A DNA stretch of 44,477 nucleotides, taken from assembly GCA_029889005.1 (NCBI GenBank), contig GCA_029889005.1_4349.1. One strand, 5' to 3'. The position numbers and the translations under genes are program-made. The notes beneath the pieces were generated by a model. The model was not told the origin of the DNA. It saw nothing but the letters and a program-made list of their open reading frames with translations, and did no database searches. This stretch comes from a phage. Within the stretch, counting starts at the first letter, position 1; every line of letters starts with the position of its first letter. Of the stretch, positions 7,810 to 41,074 are shown in pieces.

Positions 7810-7838
7810 TTGCACACCCCAATATAATAGGGTACTAT
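7810..7838 (+). promoter_or_regulatory. Sigma70-like promoter, class A (TTGCAC-N17-TACTAT) with AATAG-N4-CTATT palindrome
   Basis: Hexamers with 17 bp spacer; ~35 bp motif recurs at 17957, 28540(-), 29928(-); downstream ATG 7879. Confidence 0.5.
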
Positions 7839-7878
7839 TCACTTACACCAACGTTATTAACTTAAATAAGGAATTAAA

Positions 7879-8205
7879 ATGCGTAAATTAATCATAGCCC
7901 TTGGTCTTATTTCTTTTTGCGCGGTAGGGTCCCAGTGTGAGCAAGTATATAGTGAAACCCCTTTAGTAACTTCCGGGACGCTTGATTCAGCCCCTCCGGC
8001 TGCCGTTAGTGCGTTTAAAACCGCTGCTATTCGCGAATGTAATGCTGCCGTGCGGGCTGGCAGGTCTGGCCTGGGTCTTGAATTGATGACATCCCTTGTT
8101 GTTGAGTCTGTAGATGTTAACAGCCCTACTTTCAGCAGCCTACTGTTAGCCACCCGCCTGCAAATGGTAATGACTGGGTGGGCAATAGGCGCAGAAAGTA
8201 AATAG
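7879..8205 (+). CDS. Small secreted protein (signal peptide)
   Basis: AGGA RBS; N-terminal MRKLIIALGLISFCAVGS hydrophobic signal-like segment; preferred over overlapping antisense ORF 7857..8153. Confidence 0.5.
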   Translation: MRKLIIALGLISFCAVGSQCEQVYSETPLVTSGTLDSAPPAAVSAFKTAAIRECNAAVRAGRSGLGLELMTSLVVESVDVNSPTFSSLLLATRLQMVMTGWAIGAESK

Positions 8206-8269
8206 TCGCCTTTATTTAAAGGAATGCACTGTGGTTAAATAGGACAAATCCTAAACACGAGGAATAAAC

Positions 8270-9400
8270 ATGGCCCGGAAGAAAATAACCGACGAACAGT
8301 TGCAGGAAGAATTGAACGCCGGTATGAAGAATGTAGATATCGCCCGTAAATACGGCATCTCAGACCGCGTAATTCGTATCCGTAAAGCGAAGCTGGCTAA
8401 GAAAGGCGTGGGCCACGGGCGCGACGTTAGCCACCTTGTGCCAGACGGCTACAAGATTAAAGGAACGTCGTCCCTGGTGGACGAGTTCGGCAACACTAAG
8501 TTGCAATGGGTTAAGACCGACGCTGATGCCGAACGTCAGGTTGAATTGATGAAAGCCGTAATAGAGGGCATGAAGTCAGAGATTACGCCCGTTGCGCCTG
8601 TTAAACCGGCACGAGCCAAACGTGACGATAAACTACTCAATCTTTACACGGTATCTGATTTCCATCTCGGTATGCTGGCATGGGCCGATGAGAGCGGCGA
8701 CGACTGGGACATGAAGATTGCAGAAGACCTGTTCTCTCGGTGGTTCGACGCGGCGTTTCAGAAAGCACCGGATGCAGGAACAGGAGTTATTAACCTGCTT
8801 GGGGACTTCGCACACTTCGATAGTCTTGATGCCGTTACCCCCGAGTCGCGCCATGTATTAGATGCGGATACTCGCTATCAGAAACTGGTACGTTACATGA
8901 TTCGTATGGTCCGCCGTGTTGTTGATATGGCGCTGGTTAAGCATCACACAGTAAAACTTTTAATCGTTCAAGGTAACCACGACCCTGTTGGCTCCGTATG
9001 GCTTGCCGAAATGTTCACGGTTTTATACTCAAACGACAGCCGAGTGATTGTTGATACGTCGCCGGATGTTTACAAGATGGTGCAACACGGCAAAACGACG
9101 CTGTTCTTCCATCACGGGCATAAAGCACGATTCGACGCTATCGAACCGGTTATGATTGCCAAGTTCCGTAAAGCGTTCGGCGAGAGTGTTTACAGCTACG
9201 CCCACGTAGGCCATCTGCACCACCAGAAGATTGTAGAAAGCCGTAACATGATTGTTGAGCAACACCGCACCTTAGCGGCTAAAGACGCCTACGCCTCTCG
9301 CGGCGGATGGATGTCGGGCCGCAGTGCAAATGTAATTACTTATAGCGCCGAATATGGCGAGGTCGCACGTTTAACTATTTCACCGGAGATGCTGGGATGA
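8270..9400 (+). CDS. Calcineurin-like metallophosphoesterase with N-terminal HTH-like region
   Basis: Motifs DFHLG, GDFAHFD, GNHD, HHGH, GHLHH typical of metallophosphoesterases. Confidence 0.7.
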   Translation: MARKKITDEQLQEELNAGMKNVDIARKYGISDRVIRIRKAKLAKKGVGHGRDVSHLVPDGYKIKGTSSLVDEFGNTKLQWVKTDADAERQVELMKAVIEGMKSEITPVAPVKPARAKRDDKLLNLYTVSDFHLGMLAWADESGDDWDMKIAEDLFSRWFDAAFQKAPDAGTGVINLLGDFAHFDSLDAVTPESRHVLDADTRYQKLVRYMIRMVRRVVDMALVKHHTVKLLIVQGNHDPVGSVWLAEMFTVLYSNDSRVIVDTSPDVYKMVQHGKTTLFFHHGHKARFDAIEPVMIAKFRKAFGESVYSYAHVGHLHHQKIVESRNMIVEQHRTLAAKDAYASRGGWMSGRSANVITYSAEYGEVARLTISPEMLG

Positions 9401-9885
9401 AAGATATTGTAATTTTCGATTTAGACGGGACATTGGCTGACGGTACCCATCGCTTACACCTGTTACCAAAAGATAACTACGGAGAAACGTGGGCGTGGAA
9501 GCCATTTAACATGGCCTGCAAAGATGACGCTCCGATATACGACAATATCCATTTGTGTAGCGTACTGTGGCATTCCGGACTTACTATAATTATCCTTACC
9601 GGGCGAAGTGATGACGCTGAGGAGGAGACTCGCGAATGGTTACGAGAGAATAACGTTAGGTTTGACACGCTAATCATGCGCAGCAAACACGACAACAGAA
9701 AAGACATCGTAATTAAAGAAGAGGTGTTGCGTGCTTTCGGACTGGAAAGAATCTTGTGTGCGTTCGACGACTCTCCAGCGGTAATAAAGCATTTCCGTGA
9801 CCTCGGCATAACCGCACACGCAGTTACCGAATACGACTGTAACGGGAACTCTACACACTTAAAACCACACGGGAGCGATAAATAA
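9397..9885 (+). CDS. HAD-superfamily phosphatase
   Basis: N-terminal FDLDGTL motif I, downstream LTGR and FDDSP motifs; start overlaps upstream stop. Confidence 0.65.
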   Translation: MKDIVIFDLDGTLADGTHRLHLLPKDNYGETWAWKPFNMACKDDAPIYDNIHLCSVLWHSGLTIIILTGRSDDAEEETREWLRENNVRFDTLIMRSKHDNRKDIVIKEEVLRAFGLERILCAFDDSPAVIKHFRDLGITAHAVTEYDCNGNSTHLKPHGSDK

Positions 9886-10439
9886 TGGCTAAGGTAATTA
9901 TTCTTAATGGCCCTGCGGGTTGCGGGAAAGACACGCTTGCTATGGCGCTGGTAGAAATGGGCTTTGCGAAAGGAACTACCAGTTTCAAGAATCCGATGTT
10001 CAATATTGCTATGGCTGCGTTAGGCCAGGATGCTTACCGCGAGTTTCTCGATGGCTACGACGACCGGGCGCGGAAAGAAAAGCCAGAGGGTTTCCTTAAC
10101 GGGTTGTCTCGGCGTCAGTTCATGATTGCCATTTCCGAGCAATTCATTAAACCGGTGTTCGGTGATGATTATTTCGGTAAGTATCTTGCCGGAAACTTGC
10201 CCGACGGCGACGAAGTTTTTGTGGTGTCTGATGGCGGGTTCGCCAGCGAAGTAGCCCCTATCGTTGCCGTGGGGCATGACGTGCGAATCGTCCGCCTCCA
10301 TCGTGACGGCTATACGTTCATCTGCGATAGCCGTGGCTATCTGTACGATGTTAGTGGTGTAAAAGATTACGACACCTACATCATACCGGGTGACGTTAAA
10401 TCGAACGTTATAGACATTGCTTTAAAATTAGGTTTGTAA
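9885..10439 (+). CDS. P-loop nucleotide/nucleoside monophosphate kinase-like protein
   Basis: Walker A GPAGCGKDT near N-terminus; start overlaps HAD gene stop. Confidence 0.65.
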   Translation: MAKVIILNGPAGCGKDTLAMALVEMGFAKGTTSFKNPMFNIAMAALGQDAYREFLDGYDDRARKEKPEGFLNGLSRRQFMIAISEQFIKPVFGDDYFGKYLAGNLPDGDEVFVVSDGGFASEVAPIVAVGHDVRIVRLHRDGYTFICDSRGYLYDVSGVKDYDTYIIPGDVKSNVIDIALKLGL

Positions 10440-17758: not shown

Positions 17759-17890
17759 GGCCCTTCCGAACGCGTCAGCGTAACTACACTCAGGACTTAC
17801 GTCCCGCTCCGTTACCTGCCCGCGCCGCGGTCGCTTGTTCATACTTCACAAGCTCAGGTGGAGCTTAGCACATTTTCAGTGAAAAGTCAA
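17759..17890. repeat. Conserved ~130 bp non-coding element, copy 1
   Basis: Aligns base-for-base over long stretches with 30133..30265 (GGCCCTTCCGAA ... AACTACACTCA ... CCGCGGTCGCTTG ... TCACAAGCTCAG ... AGCTTAGCA ... AAAAGTCAA), with compensatory hairpin changes. Confidence 0.7.
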
Positions 17891-17956
17891 CTATTCGAAT
17901 AGTTTATTCCAATATTTACAATTTAGTGGAATAAATGGAATAGTCTGTATCTGTGC

Positions 17957-17985
17957 TTGCGCGCACCAATATAATAGGGTACTAT
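17957..17985 (+). promoter_or_regulatory. Sigma70-like promoter, class A (TTGCGC-N17-TACTAT)
   Basis: Same ~35 bp motif as 7810..7838; downstream ATG 18014; opposite strand also reads TTGATA-N17-TATATT (possible divergent promoter). Confidence 0.5.
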
Positions 17986-18013
17986 TCAGATATCAAAACG
18001 AGAGGAGAGTGAT

Positions 18014-18226
18014 ATGTGTGATATTAGAATGGCAAAAATGAAGAAAGCGAAAGATATCAAAGTTGGTGATAAATTGGTGAAGTTTGTTAACGGTAAAATG
18101 AAACGCGCAGAAGTTACATCCGTTGAGACTGTGGAAGGGGAGGTAGTAGGTGTAAACATCTGCATCCGCTACAGCGGTTCCGGTTTCGTTATAGTAAGAC
18201 CTTATAGAGAGCTAGAAGTATGTTAA
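18014..18226 (+). CDS. Small early protein, hypothetical
   Basis: 70 aa ORF with GAGAGGAGAG RBS after class A promoter, followed by terminator; weak similarity to 40883..41074 product. Confidence 0.5.
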   Translation: MCDIRMAKMKKAKDIKVGDKLVKFVNGKMKRAEVTSVETVEGEVVGVNICIRYSGSGFVIVRPYRELEVC

Positions 18227-18228
18227 AA

Positions 18229-18256
18229 CTAAGGCCCCATAATGGGGCCTTTTATC
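18229..18256 (+). terminator. Intrinsic terminator
   Basis: AAGGCCCC-ATAAT-GGGGCCTT hairpin then TTTATCATT. Confidence 0.7.
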
Positions 18257-18716
18257 ATTCTGGCTTAGTAACCTTCGCCGCTTTGCTTACCGCCTCTACT
18301 CCATCGGCATCAGTAACTTTAACGAAGTATTCGCCGACCGCATTAACCGTCAGAGACAGAGCCTCCTCAGGCGCATTCACCACTTCCTTACCGTCTTTGT
18401 ACCAGGTCAGAGAATACGGCGCTTTGCCTGCCTTAACCTCGACAGTGATGGTTGCGCTGCCATCTGTAAGTTCAGTGTCTTTCGGTTGCACAGAGAAATA
18501 CACGTCACCAGCGTCCGCCAGATACGGAATTTCATAAAGCATACCAGCGGCAGAGAGTGCGATACCTGTCTTGTCTGCGTACGGCATCTCGTCTACAGGT
18601 ATACCTAGTACACTTTCATCCTCAACGTAGGTTACGTTCTCACCGGAGCCAGACACCCGAGCGTACTGGACTACGCGACGTGACGGCACATCAGTTACTT
18701 TGAAAAAACCCATCAT
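18255..18716 (-). CDS. Structural protein with C-terminal Ig-like domain
   Basis: C-terminal APYSLTWYKDGKEV ... GEYFVKVTDADG similar to the Ig-like ORF at 14956..15177. Confidence 0.5.
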   Translation of the reverse strand: MMGFFKVTDVPSRRVVQYARVSGSGENVTYVEDESVLGIPVDEMPYADKTGIALSAAGMLYEIPYLADAGDVYFSVQPKDTELTDGSATITVEVKAGKAPYSLTWYKDGKEVVNAPEEALSLTVNAVGEYFVKVTDADGVEAVSKAAKVTKPE

Positions 18717-25879: not shown

Positions 25880-25908
25880 AATATAATAGGGTCGAGGATA
25901 ATAGTCAA
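25880..25908 (-). promoter_or_regulatory. Sigma70-like promoter (TTGACT-N17-TATATT)
   Basis: Minus-strand hexamers with 17 bp spacer ~35 nt upstream of 25845 start. Confidence 0.5.
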
Positions 25909-25929
25909 CTAGTCATCACAGAAAATAGA

Positions 25930-28539: not shown

Positions 28540-28568
28540 AATAGTAGCCTATTCTATCTTAGTGTGCA
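28540..28568 (-). promoter_or_regulatory. Sigma70-like promoter, class A (TTGCAC-N17-TACTAT)
   Basis: Same motif as 7810..7838 in minus orientation, ~30 nt upstream of 28509 start. Confidence 0.5.
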
Positions 28569-28727
28569 AGTAAATTTTATTGGTGTTTGTATTGTTGCAT
28601 TTCCTGCAATAGTCGCTTCGATTGTTGCGTTTGATGAAAGTGTCGCCTTTTGACGACACTAAGTTAAAGTTGTACGCTGCTGTGTAGCAGCGTAAGTCAC
28701 TCAGTAAAATCCCAAACTATTGACCTG

Positions 28728-29893: not shown

Positions 29894-29927
29894 TTCTAAA
29901 TTCCTTATGTCTCGTTCCGATAAGTGA

Positions 29928-29956
29928 ATAGTATCCTATTATGTTGGGGTGTGCAA
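29928..29956 (-). promoter_or_regulatory. Sigma70-like promoter, class A (TTGCAC-N17-TACTAT)
   Basis: Motif CTTGCACACCCCAACATAATAGGATACTATTCAC in minus orientation ~35 nt upstream of 29893 start. Confidence 0.5.
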
Positions 29957-30132
29957 GATAATAGTTACGTTGCCGTTGTGATTCTTTTGTTTCTTAAAAG
30001 AGTACGCAACGCAGTGGGTGGGCTAACGCCCACCCCAGCGGAGTGAAGTACTCTCTACCTTGCTTACGGCAACTATAGAAACTTTTAATTATCAGTGACT
30101 TGAGTATTTAGGCGGGATTAACAATAGACTTT

Positions 30133-30265
30133 GGCCCTTCCGAAAGCGCCAGCGGAACTACACTCAAGTGCCTAATGGCACGCGTTGCGTTCCCTGCCGC
30201 TCCGCGGTCGCTTGCGATATCTCACAAGCTCAGTGAAGCTTAGCATATTTTTAAGTAAAAGTCAA
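30133..30265. repeat. Conserved ~130 bp non-coding element, copy 2
   Basis: Homologous to 17759..17890; contains GTGCC-TAAT-GGCAC and AAGCT-CAGTG-AAGCTT hairpins. Confidence 0.7.
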
Positions 30266-30312
30266 TACCAGTAGCATCTTTTGTATTTTAGTAACTTTGC
30301 GTGGTGTTTTGG

Positions 30313-30341
30313 TTGCTTTTACATTCACGCTATCCTATACT
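30313..30341 (+). promoter_or_regulatory. Sigma70-like promoter (TTGCTT-N17-TATACT)
   Basis: Hexamers with 17 bp spacer ~30 nt upstream of 30373 ATG. Confidence 0.45.
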
Positions 30342-30372
30342 CGTTTTCACCAAACAAACAGGAGATATAAAA

Positions 30373-30555
30373 ATGCAGCATTACATGACACAGAATGAAG
30401 TGGCTGAACGTATCGGGGTGACACGTCAAACCATTAATAACTGGTTGCGCAGCGGTAAATTCCCTGATTGCTGTATTAAGGTTATGGGTCGCCGTTTACC
30501 AGGAACATTTGACCGTAATAAAGTTGAAGCGTGGATTAAGGAGAACGTGAAATGA
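30373..30555 (+). CDS. Small HTH DNA-binding protein (AlpA/Xis-like)
   Basis: AGGAGA RBS; TQNEVAERIGVTRQTINNWLRSGKFP helix-turn-helix; start at internal ATG of track ORF 30301..30555. Confidence 0.5.
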   Translation: MQHYMTQNEVAERIGVTRQTINNWLRSGKFPDCCIKVMGRRLPGTFDRNKVEAWIKENVK

Positions 30556-30832: not shown

Positions 30833-30961
30833 ATGACAAAGTTAATAGTTCCACAGCTACGCCGCCAGAAACACGGCGCTGACTTCTTCGCACCGGTAAA
30901 GATGAACCGCGCAATGCGCCGTATGCAGGAAGCCTTAGAACGTGCGGAGAAAAAGAAATGA
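30833..30961 (+). CDS. Small basic protein (42 aa), hypothetical
   Basis: ATG with AAGGA upstream; stop overlaps primase start (ATGA); below track cutoff. Confidence 0.35.
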   Translation: MTKLIVPQLRRQKHGADFFAPVKMNRAMRRMQEALERAEKKK

Positions 30962-33210
30962 ATATTGTTTTTGCAACGCTGCGCAACACATTCGATAAAA
31001 ACCCTGTAGCGCGTGAGATGCCTCTCGAGCAGTTTGTGGAGTATGTCTGCGATACATCGAAGCGTTTATCCGTGGATCCGTCGTGGTCTAAGGAAGAGTA
31101 CGACGCTGCCAAGATTAAGCAGAAAGCTATTGCGCCTGTTGGGGGTCGCCGTAAAAACGCTATCCTGGAAGACAGTGTGGTTAAGTTCGATTTTGACCAT
31201 CTCAACCGTACTCAGTACCGCGACCTTACCCGCAAATTCAAGAACGCACCGTTCTTCAATATTCTGCATACAACGGCATCGCATCAGCATGTGTGTAAAA
31301 ACGGTGATTACGCCTTCCGCGTTCTCGTACCGGCTCGCACGCCGTTTAACTCTAACGACGCGTGGATGGTCCAACGGGCTATTTGTGCAGAGTTAGAAAT
31401 AGATGAAGCCTTGCGTGACCACTGCACGGAAGACGGCAACCGCCTTATCTATCTGCCACATAGAGAGTCAAAGATAACGGTTACAGAAGGGCGTGTTATC
31501 CGTGCCGAGCGGTACATCAAGAAAGCCGAAGAGATGGGGTTGAGTAAACGTGAAGTTAAGACACTTGCCGCCGATGAGTATGGGCTTAATGCTGATATAG
31601 CGCATTTCTGCGAAGCCGAGCTTGGCCTTGACGCTTTATCTTCCGGGCGCGGGTACGAAGTCCCATGCCCTAACGAACATCTGCATACAGGCAAAGGCTC
31701 CACAAGCATCATGCTTGATGGTAAAGAAGTGCGCTTTGTGTGCCAGCATACAAACAACGGCGCTTGCACCGAGCTTAACCGCCGACAGCATTTGGCCCTG
31801 CGTATGTGCGGCCTGCCAGACGAGCTTAACGTAGACAAGCAACCTATCAGTATTAACAGCATTCGTGCGGCTCTGCCTGATTTACCGGATGAAGAGATTG
31901 AAGAACTGCACCGCACAGAGAACGAGGAGCCTGTAACTTGCACGCTGGAAGACCTTGAAGAAGAGGACGAGTTACCAGAACCGGTAAAGGCTGATTTCGT
32001 CGTTGAGGGGTACATGCCGTCTGATTGTATCTGGGATATTGTCGGGGAATCCGGCACGTACAAATCATTCTATACGCTGGGGATGATGTACCTGAGCGCC
32101 GCCGGGTACCGGTTTGCGGGGGCTGACACCCAACGTTGCCACCATTTCTATATTGACGGCGAGGGTGGTGCAGCTACACGAACACGTATTGATGCACTCG
32201 CGGCTAAATATGGCGAGGAAGGTAAAGATTATGTACATGTCATCGATATGGGCGAAATACTCGCTACGCATGGTGATAAAAAAATTCCAGCTCTAATCCG
32301 CAGGATGCGCGAAACCGCAGGGGATGAACCTATTGGCATGGTTGCCTTCGACACCCTTAACCAGACGCTGGCCCTGACGATTGATAAGTTCGACGAGAAC
32401 AGTTCATCAACGGCAATCGGTATGGGTAAAGTTATCGCCATCCTGAAAGAAGTGCGCGATGCAACTAAAGCCGCTGTCGGTGTCGTTCACCATACTCCGA
32501 AGGGCGGAAAGAAAGCCCGCGGCAGTGGAGCATTGTATGCGGGTGTCGACGTGGAACTGACAATCGAACGCGCTACCGACCGTCAGATAAACGTATACCA
32601 CTCTAAATTTAAGCACGGTCCGCAACAGAAGACGGTTGGCATGGTACTGGAGTCTGTACAGTTCCGTGAAGCACCGCCGCCGAAAGAGTACCGCGCGGTT
32701 GAGTTCCTCGGTAGCACAGAGGAATACGGCACAATAGTAAACCTCGACCTGCCTGAGCCGCACAAGGCGCTTGTATTGATGCCGTGGGGCTTCGAGCCAT
32801 TCAAGACCGACGAGGAGAAAGAGAGGGAAGAAGGGTTAACTAACGAAGGTAAACAAAATGTACGTAAAACCATAGAGAACGCCGTCAACAGTTCCGAGGC
32901 CACGATACTCGCGGCGTTTGAACTGGCGGAGGGGACCTACAACGGCAACGAGGGCATCACGGTATCCGCAGCGAATAAGCTCGCGCAGTCTGACCCCAAC
33001 GCAAAGGCGTTTAACTCCAAAGAAGCCATAGAACGCGGGAAGATTAAGAAAATGGTTGAGGCTGGGTATCTTGTTCCGGGTACTGACGAAAACAATCAGA
33101 TAATCCCAGGCCGTTACAGACTGAACACCATGATAACAGATAACAAGATTCCGAAGACAATATACGAGCCGAATGAAATGCTGACAGTGACCGAGGAGGA
33201 TTTGGAATGA
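30958..33210 (+). CDS. Primase-polymerase (AEP-like) / RecA-like helicase fusion
   Basis: N-terminal VKFDFDH and ASHQH motifs, central Cys/His cluster (CPNEHLH ... CQHTNNGAC), C-terminal Walker A GESGTYKS and RecA/DnaB-like ATPase region. Confidence 0.75.
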   Translation: MNIVFATLRNTFDKNPVAREMPLEQFVEYVCDTSKRLSVDPSWSKEEYDAAKIKQKAIAPVGGRRKNAILEDSVVKFDFDHLNRTQYRDLTRKFKNAPFFNILHTTASHQHVCKNGDYAFRVLVPARTPFNSNDAWMVQRAICAELEIDEALRDHCTEDGNRLIYLPHRESKITVTEGRVIRAERYIKKAEEMGLSKREVKTLAADEYGLNADIAHFCEAELGLDALSSGRGYEVPCPNEHLHTGKGSTSIMLDGKEVRFVCQHTNNGACTELNRRQHLALRMCGLPDELNVDKQPISINSIRAALPDLPDEEIEELHRTENEEPVTCTLEDLEEEDELPEPVKADFVVEGYMPSDCIWDIVGESGTYKSFYTLGMMYLSAAGYRFAGADTQRCHHFYIDGEGGAATRTRIDALAAKYGEEGKDYVHVIDMGEILATHGDKKIPALIRRMRETAGDEPIGMVAFDTLNQTLALTIDKFDENSSSTAIGMGKVIAILKEVRDATKAAVGVVHHTPKGGKKARGSGALYAGVDVELTIERATDRQINVYHSKFKHGPQQKTVGMVLESVQFREAPPPKEYRAVEFLGSTEEYGTIVNLDLPEPHKALVLMPWGFEPFKTDEEKEREEGLTNEGKQNVRKTIENAVNSSEATILAAFELAEGTYNGNEGITVSAANKLAQSDPNAKAFNSKEAIERGKIKKMVEAGYLVPGTDENNQIIPGRYRLNTMITDNKIPKTIYEPNEMLTVTEEDLE

Positions 33211-33521
33211 ATATTTACGATTTTATAGATAACCCGTTTAAAGCAGTGAAGGCAGGATACCGCCCGTCATACCTGACATGTGTTTCCGCTGTAAGCAACA
33301 ACTGGTGGACTTTTTGTGTGTATGCAGCGGGGATTTTTGCGGAGTTTAAAGACATTTTAGACATGACGCTGGCAGAGATTATAAAGTGCCTTTTCAAATT
33401 AATTATATCGATAACTATTGTTATAAGTTTTCCTGTAAGTGCGTGGTTTCTCGCCTGGATTCAGTACCTGAACGTGCAACACACTATTAAGAATTTGGAA
33501 GAACTCGATAAGTTGCTATAA
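33207..33521 (+). CDS. Small membrane protein, hypothetical
   Basis: 104 aa with hydrophobic helices, strongly AT-rich codon usage. Confidence 0.5.
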   Translation: MNIYDFIDNPFKAVKAGYRPSYLTCVSAVSNNWWTFCVYAAGIFAEFKDILDMTLAEIIKCLFKLIISITIVISFPVSAWFLAWIQYLNVQHTIKNLEELDKLL

Positions 33522-33547
33522 AAAGAAAGGGGCTTTAAGCCCCTTCA
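33521..33547. terminator. Hairpin terminator between convergent genes
   Basis: AGGGGC-TTTAA-GCCCCT hairpin with A/T-rich flank. Confidence 0.5.
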
Positions 33548-33750
33548 CCTAACGCCAGCCACTTGGCGTCTACTTCCAGAACTTCCGCCAGTTTGAACAG
33601 CGTTGCCGGGCGGACGTCCTGAGTTACTCCAAGTGCCAGTTGGTTAATCGCGCCCTGGGAAACGCCGGTCAGGGCCGCCAAACGGCGCTGGGAGATGCCG
33701 AGTTCTTTACGGCGTTGTTCTACACGGATACCTAGTTCAGATGGTTGCAT
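33535..33750 (-). CDS. XRE-family HTH transcriptional regulator (Cro/CI-like)
   Basis: LGISQRRLAALTGVSQGAINQLALG helix-turn-helix; AAGGAG RBS; divergent from the downstream plus-strand genes. Confidence 0.7.
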   Translation of the reverse strand: MQPSELGIRVEQRRKELGISQRRLAALTGVSQGAINQLALGVTQDVRPATLFKLAEVLEVDAKWLALGEGA

Positions 33751-33814
33751 GTCAATTACTCCTTAGTCAGTTGATATGTGAATAGTACCATATTAATTAT
33801 TTTAGAAAAGCCCA

Positions 33815-33843
33815 TTGACACGTGAATAGTTCGCTATTATAGT
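33815..33843 (+). promoter_or_regulatory. Sigma70-like promoter, class B (TTGACA-N17-TATAGT) with GAATAG-N4-CTAT palindrome in spacer
   Basis: Consensus -35, 17 bp spacer containing TGAATAGTTCGCTAT; second palindrome copy ~33777..33801. Confidence 0.55.
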
Positions 33844-33871
33844 TAACCCATACCAAACGAGAGGGGCAGAT

Positions 33872-34099
33872 ATGAACACAATCACTGGGGCCATAGCTAA
33901 AGGTTTTCGAGCAATTTTCGGAGAATCGCAGGAAGTGTGCACAAAACATAAATTTGTACTTTCTTGCGTAGTCGGGGACGAGTTTGATGGGTTCGATAAA
34001 CTTGTTGTCTGCGACCATTGCGGGCAAGAAGCTATTCAACACCCAAACGGTAAATTTGAATTAATAGACGATAGCCTTACAGAAGGCGACGGCGAGTAA
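33872..34099 (+). CDS. Hypothetical protein with Cys pairs
   Basis: 75 aa; C ... C and CDHC. Confidence 0.45.
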   Translation: MNTITGAIAKGFRAIFGESQEVCTKHKFVLSCVVGDEFDGFDKLVVCDHCGQEAIQHPNGKFELIDDSLTEGDGE

Positions 34100-34123: not shown

Positions 34124-34615
34124 ATGTTAGAGAAATTCTTAGTATTACTGGAACGTTTCGTAGTTGCGCACGAACTGATTGCCGCGAACAGTGCGAAACA
34201 AGTTGTTCAGGTTGCCACGCCGCTGGAAGTAGAGACGGTATCGTACACCAAAGAAGCGGTAGCTGAGTGCGCTGAAGAAGCAACAAAAGAAATCCCGGTT
34301 GAAGGTGAAGACGTAGTTGACACTAAACCGGCGGAGGAAGAGAAGCCAAAACGCAAGCCGCGTAAAGCTAAAGTAGAGGAACCTGCGCCAGAACCGGAAG
34401 AAGAGGTCGATTACAAGTCTCTGCGTGACCAGATTCAGGCCATCGACGATGCAATTAATGAAGGTCCTAGCGAGGCCGCGTGCGATGATTCTGATGAACT
34501 GCTGGAAGAGTTCACAGGTAAGAAGATGAAGATTGCCGCGATTAAAGACGAAGACCTGGTTGAGTACCTGGAACGCCTGACAGCAATCAAGAACAAGTAT
34601 TTCGAAGAAGAATAA
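34124..34615 (+). CDS. Highly acidic protein, hypothetical
   Basis: 163 aa with long Glu/Asp-rich region and KPKRKPRKAK basic patch. Confidence 0.45.
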   Translation: MLEKFLVLLERFVVAHELIAANSAKQVVQVATPLEVETVSYTKEAVAECAEEATKEIPVEGEDVVDTKPAEEEKPKRKPRKAKVEEPAPEPEEEVDYKSLRDQIQAIDDAINEGPSEAACDDSDELLEEFTGKKMKIAAIKDEDLVEYLERLTAIKNKYFEEE

Positions 34616-36169: not shown

Positions 36170-36369
36170 TTCAAGTAAATGAAATGCCGACTGATAAAGA
36201 TTTTTTGATGGTATGGCGCTGGGATGGGTATCTACACTCGGAATCGTTCACGTTCTTGAACGGTACCATGATGCGATACGACCATGTGGAGGATGAATTC
36301 GAACCCGTTGATATGAATGATTTCGAGATCATAATCCCTATTGCAAAATTTTATTTGACACATGAATAG
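36136..36369 (+). CDS. Hypothetical protein
   Basis: Likely start ATG ~36166 with AGAGGAGG RBS overlapping nuclease stop. Confidence 0.4.
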   Translation: MESGYRGGFRMIQVNEMPTDKDFLMVWRWDGYLHSESFTFLNGTMMRYDHVEDEFEPVDMNDFEIIIPIAKFYLTHE

Positions 36370-36383
36370 TTAGCTATTATAGT
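36355..36383 (+). promoter_or_regulatory. Sigma70-like promoter, class B (TTGACA-N17-TATAGT)
   Basis: Spacer CATGAATAGTTAGCTAT contains the GAATAG-N4-CTAT palindrome; ~70 nt upstream of 36452 ATG. Confidence 0.55.
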
Positions 36384-40567: not shown

Positions 40568-40852
40568 ATGACCCCGGAAGGCAAGATTCAGAAATACGCA
40601 AAAGAGCAATTCGAGGCCATTGGCGGCCTCGTTCGTAAACTTTCGTACGAGGGGCGCTCCGGCGCCCCTGACCTGCTGGTAATTCTCCCCGGCGGCATCG
40701 TCTGGTTCGTCGAGGTTAAGAAAGACGAAAACACGAAGCCAGACCCGCACCAGTTACGTGAGCATGAGCGGATGCGTAAACGCGGTGCAAATGTTTTTGT
40801 CGTTGGTTCGTTTAAACAGGTTGACGACCTAATAGCAAACTATTATAGTTAG
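40568..40852 (+). CDS. VRR-NUC domain nuclease
   Basis: GAPDLLVIL ... WFVEVK PD-(D/E)XK-type motif in a 94 aa protein. Confidence 0.7.
   Translation: MTPEGKIQKYAKEQFEAIGGLVRKLSYEGRSGAPDLLVILPGGIVWFVEVKKDENTKPDPHQLREHERMRKRGANVFVVGSFKQVDDLIANYYS
40821..40849 (+). promoter_or_regulatory. Sigma70-like promoter, class B (TTGACG-N17-TATAGT)
   Basis: Lies in 3' end of VRR-NUC gene; predicted leader ACACCAAC ... TAAGGAATT ... ATG matches leader of 7879 gene. Confidence 0.5.
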
Positions 40853-40882: not shown

Positions 40883-41074
40883 ATGAAACACGAATATGAC
40901 CGCAAGCCAGCACGTGACATCGTACCTGGCGACATGATTTTCAACGTTAAGACCCGCCAGCCTGTTGCCGTTGATACGGTGTTCGTCGAGTCGAACGGTA
41001 AACTGGTTATCGAAGATGTAACTGGTAACGTTACGGCGTTCGGGCGTAAAGAGCTGGTGCTGGTGGCAAAATGA
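40883..41074 (+). CDS. Small protein, hypothetical
   Basis: 63 aa; AAGGAATT RBS; weak similarity to 18014..18226 product. Confidence 0.45.
   Translation: MKHEYDRKPARDIVPGDMIFNVKTRQPVAVDTVFVESNGKLVIEDVTGNVTAFGRKELVLVAK

Follow-up and report, generated by a model that had tools for sequence, protein, structure and literature searches.

The phage DNA analysed here (GenBank assembly GCA_029889005.1, contig GCA_029889005.1_4349.1; the whole stretch of 44,477 nucleotides (nt) is called the window) carries on its minus strand a gene for a protein of the XRE family with 71 amino acids (aa; 33535-33750). This protein, referred to as XRE, probably binds the repeated site AATAG-N4-CTATT as a dimer in the manner of 434 Cro and would thereby govern transcription across the whole genome of this lytic phage. 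The small membrane-protein gene next to it (33207-33521, plus strand) would have no part in this control. An earlier note on this DNA had read the two genes, a divergent promoter and two palindromes as an immunity or exclusion switch. Judged from its sequence, the window is a genome of the Kagunavirus type (Guernseyvirinae) and belongs to a virulent siphophage of E. coli. Approximately 7 kb around the locus were 96% identical at the nucleotide level to Escherichia phage SHAK7858, which has a Kagunavirus-type genome, and 88-94% identical to Kagunavirus isolates including Golestan, Bas70-76 and relatives of K1G. Golestan, a close relative, is classified as Guernseyvirinae/Kagunavirus, and the Kagunavirus group is reported to be strictly lytic (PMC7203180; BASEL extension preprint; PMC9787291). 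Neither an integrase nor a CI-type repressor with a domain for oligomerisation or cleavage nor an RNA polymerase gene was present among the 83 annotated genes of the near-identical genome with 96% identity, in agreement with the earlier note as far as the integrase is concerned.

XRE matched the helix-turn-helix (HTH) domain HTH_3 of Pfam (PF01381) with 49.7 bits at a cut-off of 23 (E = 3.9e-13, residues 11-65). Its closest solved relatives were 434 Cro, which also has 71 aa (E = 8.5e-6), and the N-terminal domain of the 434 repressor (1.1e-5), both aligned over residues 6-68, and HipB and HigA were found among the PDB matches as well. The gene had thus been correctly recognised as Cro/CI-like. 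The protein consists of a lone all-alpha HTH domain and has no C-terminal oligomerisation or cleavage domain. It keeps the glutamines equivalent to Gln28 and Gln33 of the recognition helix of the 434 repressor, and its own recognition helix GVSQGAINQLALG was invariant across every Kagunavirus XRE compared, including a 78%-identical homologue that uses the same operators. Ratios of non-synonymous to synonymous substitution rates (dN/dS) of 0.05-0.17, at a synonymous divergence of 0.2-0.3, pointed to strong purifying selection, and XRE was found in 537 phage records. The gene is convergent with the membrane-protein open reading frame (ORF) and, on its other side, divergent from that at 33872. 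It ends in an intrinsic terminator hairpin (33526-33546, minus strand) with a stem of 9 bp and a T-run behind it on the minus strand. This hairpin lies 5 nt past the stop codon of the membrane ORF and has no T-run on the plus strand.

The 121-nt gap between XRE and the gene at 33872 holds the promoter P_R (33815-33843, plus strand; TTGACA-17 nt-TATAGT), which agrees with the sigma-70 consensus in 11 of 12 positions and was kept in all relatives; this is the consensus promoter described earlier. Like all promoters in this work it is a consensus prediction, and it is predicted to drive the gene at 33872 and the downstream genes up to the exonuclease gene. The candidate operator O2 (AATAGttcgCTATT, 33825-33838) is an exact copy of the motif and lies in the P_R spacer with its centre near -18.5. 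The second candidate, O1 (AATAGtaccATATT, 33781-33794), carries one mismatch, its right half being ATATT and not CTATT. Both belong to a 25-nt direct repeat of 80% identity and lie at a distance of 44 bp from each other. O1 overlaps the likely -10/+1 region of XRE's own promoter. A consensus scan gave TTCACG-16 nt-TAAAAT (33799-33826, minus strand; 9 of 12 positions) as a candidate for this leftward promoter, with a -35 element that abuts or overlaps O2. Read on the minus strand, O1 contains TACTAT (33787-33782) and resembles the class B promoters described below.

From the two palindromes of the earlier note, the one at 33825-33838 thus proved to be exact and the one at 33781-33794 imperfect, and the motif was not local. 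With up to one mismatch allowed, AATAG-N4-CTATT occurred ten times in the window compared to 1.22 expected occurrences, and none of 100 shuffles reached ten. Seven copies were exact (0.04 expected), which made the motif the sole enriched palindrome of the window apart from terminators. All seven exact copies lie in sigma-70-like -35/-10 contexts and face a gene start 30-90 nt away. They fall into two classes. In class A (promoters at 33815, 36355 and 40821, all on the plus strand), with the arrangement TTGAC(A/G)-4 nt-AATAGnnnnCTATT-ATAGT, the spacer is taken up by the palindrome, centred near -18.5. In class B (7810 and 17957 on the plus strand, 28569 and 29956 on the minus strand), with the arrangement TTGC(A/G)C-10 nt-AATAGGnTACTATT-CA, the right half-site makes the -10 hexamer TACTAT, with the palindrome centred near -12.5. 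A third register was seen in a degenerate copy with one mismatch (AATAGtcaaCTAGT, 25900-25913), which contains a minus-strand -35 element TTGACT and is conserved in relatives. Altogether, the motif occupies the spacer in three promoters, the -10 region in four and the -35 element in this one degenerate copy.

Besides O2, class A comprises the copy at 36365-36378 (TTGACA at 36355, 17 nt, TATAGT), upstream of the genes for a single-stranded-DNA-binding protein and DNA polymerase, and the copy at 40831-40844 (TTGACG at 40821, 17 nt, TATAGT), upstream of the gene at 40883 and a DNA helicase gene. The class B copies lie over the -10 of the leftward promoters with TTGCAC at 29956 (copy at 29927-29940, -10 TACTAT, upstream of 29893 on the minus strand) and at 28569 (copy at 28540-28553, upstream of 28509 on the minus strand). 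Two more lie over the -10 of rightward promoters, namely at 17973-17986 (TTGCGC, upstream of 18014 on the plus strand), with a one-mismatch copy at 17882-17895 nearby, and at 7826-7839 (TTGCAC at 7810, upstream of 7879 on the plus strand). The motif-bearing promoters hence head the recombination and replication genes, the genes for the single-stranded-DNA-binding protein and DNA polymerase, and the DNA helicase gene; the others head two short antisense units in the late region and leftward units whose first genes are small and of unknown function. These antisense units (7879-10439 and 18014-18537) lie on the plus strand inside the minus-strand structural region and have their own class B promoters (7810 and 17957). 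By synteny, 7879-10439 corresponds to genes annotated as 'superinfection immunity' protein, DNA repair exonuclease, polynucleotide kinase and deoxynucleoside monophosphate kinase.

The repeated element as such is already known. Genome papers using PHIRE list seven 'phage promoters' with the consensus tgAATAGTa-ccTATTat-T (PMC9825357), and seven were also given for Golestan (PMC7203180). New is the reading as an operator regulon tied to a Cro-like protein, with a genus-specific variant. These papers, which call the seven copies 'phage-specific promoters', speak for a family of paralogous phage promoters, served by a phage or the host RNA polymerase, with incidental palindromy and no dedicated repressor, as does the right half-site, which overlaps or abuts the -10 hexamer in every class. 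This explanation is nevertheless judged to be quite unlikely. As mentioned above, the annotated near-identical genome has no RNA polymerase gene. The motif is symmetric, for which promoters have no reason, and it is placed in either of two orientations and in three registers with respect to the -10. Furthermore, the left half-site in the spacer is not read by sigma-70 and was still invariant in 36 orthologues in which neighbouring spacer bases vary.

The last observation comes from 80 related viral loci that were fetched via the alignment of four XRE proteins. The exact motif was found 169 times in 38 Kagunavirus sequences (683 kb) and 32 times in ten Jerseyvirus loci (182 kb), compared to none in four Cornellvirus loci. 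Among 36 distinct Kagunavirus sequences of the intergenic region between XRE and P_R, the half-sites of O2 showed no substitutions and O1, including its imperfect half, showed little or no change. Variation within the region was highest in the linker of 4-5 nt between the -35 element and the palindrome, which also varies in length, and in the N4 centre. This difference is informative because the adjoining XRE gene has a synonymous divergence of 0.2-0.3. The invariant half-sites, the free centre and the three registers relative to the -10 therefore argue for selection on a symmetric protein-binding site, beyond the hexamers of RNA polymerase, and the conservation pattern is the one expected of a dimer operator.

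The genus Cornellvirus, in which the exact motif was missing, keeps an XRE orthologue with 41-43% identity that is divergent from the same P_R. A related motif, ATTAG-N4-GTATT, surfaced there only from aligning promoters; a PHIRE-like all-against-all 20-mer search of the Cornellvirus genomes returned terminator hairpins only, and an enumeration of exact palindromes found none enriched in them. With up to one mismatch, the variant occurred seven times in SE1 (2.06 expected) and eight times in VSiA (2.30 expected), and neither number was reached in any of 100 shuffles. It lies in Cornellvirus promoter spacers or -10 regions, including that of P_R (TTGCAT-aacgg-ATTAGtttaGTATT-ATAGT) and, in VSiA, also XRE's own promoter. 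ATTAG-N4-GTATT was not enriched in the window (3 compared to 2.6 expected), and AATAG-N4-CTATT was not enriched in the Cornellvirus genomes. Two copies flank XRE's own promoter in all three genera. In Cornellvirus SE1 and VSiA, the helicase-primase gene is inverted compared to Kagunavirus and Jerseyvirus and lies 3' of XRE on the same strand; therefore, XRE is the first gene of the helicase-primase operon there and not convergent with it.

The window encodes a second candidate for the binding protein, an 'excisionase-like' HTH_17 protein of 60 aa (30373-30555, plus strand; Pfam HTH_17 at 4.9e-8). If this or a host protein bound the palindrome, the role of XRE would be local or unrelated. HTH_17 was found in Kagunavirus and Jerseyvirus only, the two genera sharing the exact motif, and is 82% identical between them, whereas XRE is merely 48% identical between these genera although the motif is the same. 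A tblastn search found no HTH_17 in Cornellvirus SE1 and VSiA, both of which have no enrichment of the exact motif, and the small gene adjoining XRE in SE1 (gp13) contained no HTH domain according to Pfam. At first, this phyletic pattern favoured HTH_17. Given this distribution, Cornellvirus offers the sole available contrast between the two proteins, and it has, in the absence of HTH_17, still a related multi-copy promoter motif, including the copies at P_R and the XRE promoter. XRE and a promoter-embedded 14-bp motif thus occur in all three genera and HTH_17 does not, for which reason XRE is favoured as the binder; judged from these genomes, the Cornellvirus variant shifted the balance. The inverted-repeat geometry of 5+4+5 bp also suits dimers of the Cro/434 type, whereas winged-helix proteins of the excisionase type typically bind as monomers to direct repeats. 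Moreover, the promoter of the operon that begins with HTH_17 and contains the helicase-primase gene (30315-30343; TTGCTT-17 nt-TATACT) has no copy of the palindrome. To our knowledge, no consensus of a known E. coli regulator fits the motif, which counts against a host protein. Binding by HTH_17 or a host factor is therefore considered rather improbable.

Under the favoured explanation, that XRE is the binding protein, a dimer on O2 would cover approximately -25 to -12 of P_R and block RNA polymerase. XRE would thus turn down P_R, the promoter of the recombination and replication genes. O1 would lie over the -10/+1 of the XRE promoter, whether this is TTCACG-16 nt-TAAAAT or the class B-like TACTAT with a poor -35 element, and its occupation, together with that of O2 where it overlaps the TTCACG -35 element, would result in negative autoregulation. 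That the imperfection of O1 is conserved suggests a lower affinity, so that XRE would repress itself only at a high level. The same logic would apply to six or more further sigma-70-type promoters of this phage. The promoter at 30315-30343, the lone predicted major promoter with no copy of the palindrome, may escape this regulation. We infer the direction of regulation, that is, repression and autoregulation, from the position of the sites. XRE would then play the part that Cro of lambda or 434 has in lytic growth, with no CI partner and no lysogeny. In an RNA sequencing study of a Kagunavirus, only four genes are listed as early, and one of them encodes an HTH-domain protein (PMC12645636). 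Based on gene order only, this gene (gene 008 in the K1B4 data) would correspond to XRE.

A more far-reaching proposal, put forward tentatively and at somewhat less than an even chance, is that the Guernseyvirinae run essentially all strong promoters through one Cro-like protein of 71 aa. This protein would be a single-repressor governor with no CI and with operators in three registers, and the operator would have co-diversified with the protein between genera (AATAG-N4-CTATT compared to ATTAG-N4-GTATT).

Several points weigh against XRE as the governor. Repression of every strong promoter, including that of the long leftward lysis/structural unit, lacks an obvious logic. The assignment of the motif to XRE is based on geometry, adjacency and one phylogenetic contrast, and HTH_17 is present or absent in step with the exact motif, so that a single evolutionary event would fit either protein. 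The variant motif was derived post hoc from the P_R site of Cornellvirus and, with the half-sites ATTAG and AATAC, falls short of a true palindrome. Jerseyvirus (SQSLITH) and Cornellvirus (TQSAISH) have recognition helices that resemble each other, yet their motifs differ, while Kagunavirus has the helix SQGAINQ and shares its motif with Jerseyvirus. Finally, all promoters are predicted from the consensus, and the published time course, in which gene 008 was matched to XRE as described, is coarse.

The membrane-protein gene was well supported as a gene of its own. It follows the replicative helicase-primase gene (30958-33210, plus strand; Pfam AAA_25 at 2e-20 and annotated thus in relatives), which is the final conserved gene of the rightward operon beginning at the HTH_17 gene. 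Its ATG overlaps the helicase-primase stop codon (ATGA), with a ribosome-binding site GAGGAGG just 5' of it. The GC content of 38.7%, compared to 50.3% for the window, places the ORF within the lowest 0.8% of all 315-nt windows of the GC profile, in line with the AT-rich membrane-protein gene pointed out earlier. The protein has 104 aa and belongs to the uncharacterised phage family phrog_2638, whose profile covers residues 1-98 (E = 6.9e-33). It has a single strongly hydrophobic stretch at approx. residues 62-85 (Kyte-Doolittle values up to 2.2), which makes it a predicted single-pass membrane protein. The dN/dS of 0.13-0.27 against four orthologues shows that it is a real gene, and 13 family members aligned well with an invariant N-terminal block. 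An AlphaFold2 model (mean confidence score pLDDT 86.5) was all-helical with the transmembrane stretch in a long C-terminal helix. The positive-inside rule predicts an orientation with the N-terminus inside and the C-terminus outside. Searches with the protein gave only a sub-threshold match to DUF4750 in the hydrophobic stretch (Pfam) and no match in PADLOC, and the model had no match in BFVD and PDB at E <= 0.001.

The distance between the stop codons of helicase-primase and XRE was determined in 48 Kagunavirus and Jerseyvirus genomes. This slot was empty in 31 of them (approx. 18 bp), held the membrane ORF in seven (325 bp) and an unrelated soluble protein of 65 aa in six (approx. 208-212 bp), and contained other inserts in the remaining four (148, 304, 436 or 593 bp). 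XRE, its terminator and both operators were present in all 48. With the slot empty in 31 genomes and occupied by other genes in ten, and with the XRE module kept regardless, the membrane gene is a separate accessory cassette and not part of the regulator module. The cassette was found beside differing alleles of the helicase-primase C-terminus. Homologues of the protein formed 25 clusters, all on phage-sized contigs, and 14 phage records carried the gene. One homologue occurs in the unrelated 58-kb Enterobacter phage Mulvp2 in another genomic context. The gene would thus sit in a recombination-prone slot between helicase-primase and the XRE terminator and would be transcribed as the tail of the helicase-primase operon. 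A role in early host takeover or superinfection exclusion is plausible, yet no more than a guess. The C-terminal 250 aa of helicase-primase (32460-33210) are themselves mosaic among Kagunavirus, with identity classes of approx. 34%, approx. 67% and 97-100%, and these discrete classes imply recombination within the gene.

The census also bears on the switch proposed in the earlier note, in which XRE would be an immunity repressor of the lysogeny type and the membrane protein its exclusion effector. A Cro/CI-type HTH protein does face a divergent promoter with operator-like palindromes, and superinfection-exclusion factors often take the form of small early membrane proteins. The two genes do not form one unit, though, as 41 of the 48 genomes have the whole XRE module and no membrane gene. 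XRE with its 71 aa is a DNA-binding domain alone, the candidate operators are spread over the genome with seven exact sites and not arranged as a tripartite operator, and the group is reported to be strictly lytic. Neither an integrase nor an attachment site nor a long CI-type repressor is known from the annotated near-identical genome, which has a gene annotated as 'superinfection immunity protein' elsewhere. The switch is thus regarded as very unlikely. Even less credible is a toxin-antitoxin-like or otherwise co-dependent pair of XRE and membrane protein. The two genes are adjacent and convergent with a common terminator, XRE-type antitoxins are common, and HipB and HigA were among the structural matches as mentioned above. 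Such a pair is contradicted by the 41 genomes with XRE and no membrane gene and by the unrelated soluble proteins that the slot also houses. In Mulvp2, the neighbours of the homologue are annotated as hypothetical and no regulator is annotated among them, although these neighbours were not scanned for HTH domains.

A second variable slot lies on the other side of the regulator module. The first gene after P_R (33872-34099, plus strand; phrog_32657) encodes a Cys-rich protein of 75 aa (C23, C32, C47 and C50; GC content 0.44), for which a Pfam search gave no match. It was present in only approx. 5 of 37 related loci, and the others start directly with a homologue of the gene at 34124 or with other small ORFs. 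Farther upstream, a gene-free stretch of 340 nt (29960-30300) separates the leftward class B promoter from that of the HTH_17/helicase-primase operon. Its predicted fold is more stable than those of shuffled sequences (minimum free energy -105 kcal/mol, z = -3.3) and includes a GC-rich hairpin GTGGGTGGGCtaacGCCCACCC. Rfam gave no match to this stretch, which may serve as a replication origin or give rise to a non-coding RNA. A search for known RNA families across the whole window found none. The GenBank record of SHAK7858 (OR594183) has an opposite-strand ORF of 96 nt annotated where the XRE gene should be. It is filed under Autographiviridae/Kayfunavirus and named 'vB_EcoM', while the sequence itself is that of a Kagunavirus siphophage.

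With therapy and biocontrol in view, phages of Kagunavirus and Jerseyvirus are widely isolated, and they serve as small engineering chassis, but their transcription programme is essentially unstudied. If one Cro-like protein and a 14-bp site indeed controlled every main promoter, this would provide a simple handle to tune or switch phage expression. It would also explain the recurring 'lysogeny-like repressor' annotations in lytic genomes, which bears on safety assessments, and would correct the published assignment of the motif to a phage RNA polymerase. The regulator module lies between two hot-spots of accessory genes, which are natural spots for the insertion of payloads or for the search for host-takeover and anti-defence genes.

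Concerning known systems, the membrane protein is like T4 Imm and Sp, P22 SieA and HK97 gp15 in being small and AT-rich with one transmembrane helix, a patchy distribution and predicted early-gene expression. It differs from them in that the Pfam, PADLOC and fold searches revealed no sequence or fold similarity. Lambdoid immunity switches have a CI with a C-terminal dimerisation or S24 domain, an integrase or recombinase with a temperate lifestyle, and three tandem operators. The locus has a lone XRE of 71 aa with a divergent gene for a Cys-rich protein of 75 aa, belongs to a lytic group with no integrase, and has a pair of sites at a distance of 44 bp, of which one is imperfect. Activation through the spacer as with MerR needs a palindrome in an over-long spacer of 19-20 bp and was rejected, as the spacers have 17 bp here and 17-18 bp in relatives. 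Antitermination of the Q/AlpA type, which was rejected for HTH_17, relies on an RNA-exit-channel element, a pause site that resembles a -10 and, in the promoter, a short element to which a monomer binds. HTH_17 has 60 aa and XRE 71 aa compared to approx. 150 aa or more in that type, and the type of binding site differs; AlpA binds a 6-bp element as a single molecule with DNA-contact residues at 128-142 (PMC9371919). A promoter for a phage RNA polymerase was rejected as well, as the near-identical genome has no gene for such an enzyme and the motif is flanked by -35/-10 elements of the sigma-70 type. The 'phage-specific promoters' reported with PHIRE for fBC-Eco01 and Golestan are the same element with seven copies per genome, which one of the papers ascribes to a phage RNA polymerase and which is read here as an operator in host-type sigma-70 promoters.

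The repressor gp71 of mycobacteriophage L5 is a small protein with many dispersed short 'stoperator' sites in a temperate phage, and the candidate described here would likewise be one small phage repressor with many dispersed short sites. The stoperators are asymmetric, 13 bp long, located inside transcribed regions and dependent on orientation in their effect on elongation, whereas the sites here are palindromic and lie within promoter cores. The closest counterpart is 434 Cro and the DNA-binding domain of the 434 repressor. XRE shares with 434 Cro the size of 71 aa and aligns with these domains over the full length. Operators of 434 have 14 bp with conserved outer bases and a variable centre, and the candidate site has 14 bp and a variable centre, too. 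As with 434 Cro, the site overlaps a promoter and a presumably weaker one lies over the regulator's own promoter. Differences are found in the half-site, which is AATAG here and ACAA in 434, and in the setting, which lacks a CI partner, P_RM, a tripartite O_R and lysogeny. The 434 operators are confined to O_R and O_L, while the candidate operators of XRE are located at seven or more promoters of a virulent genome.

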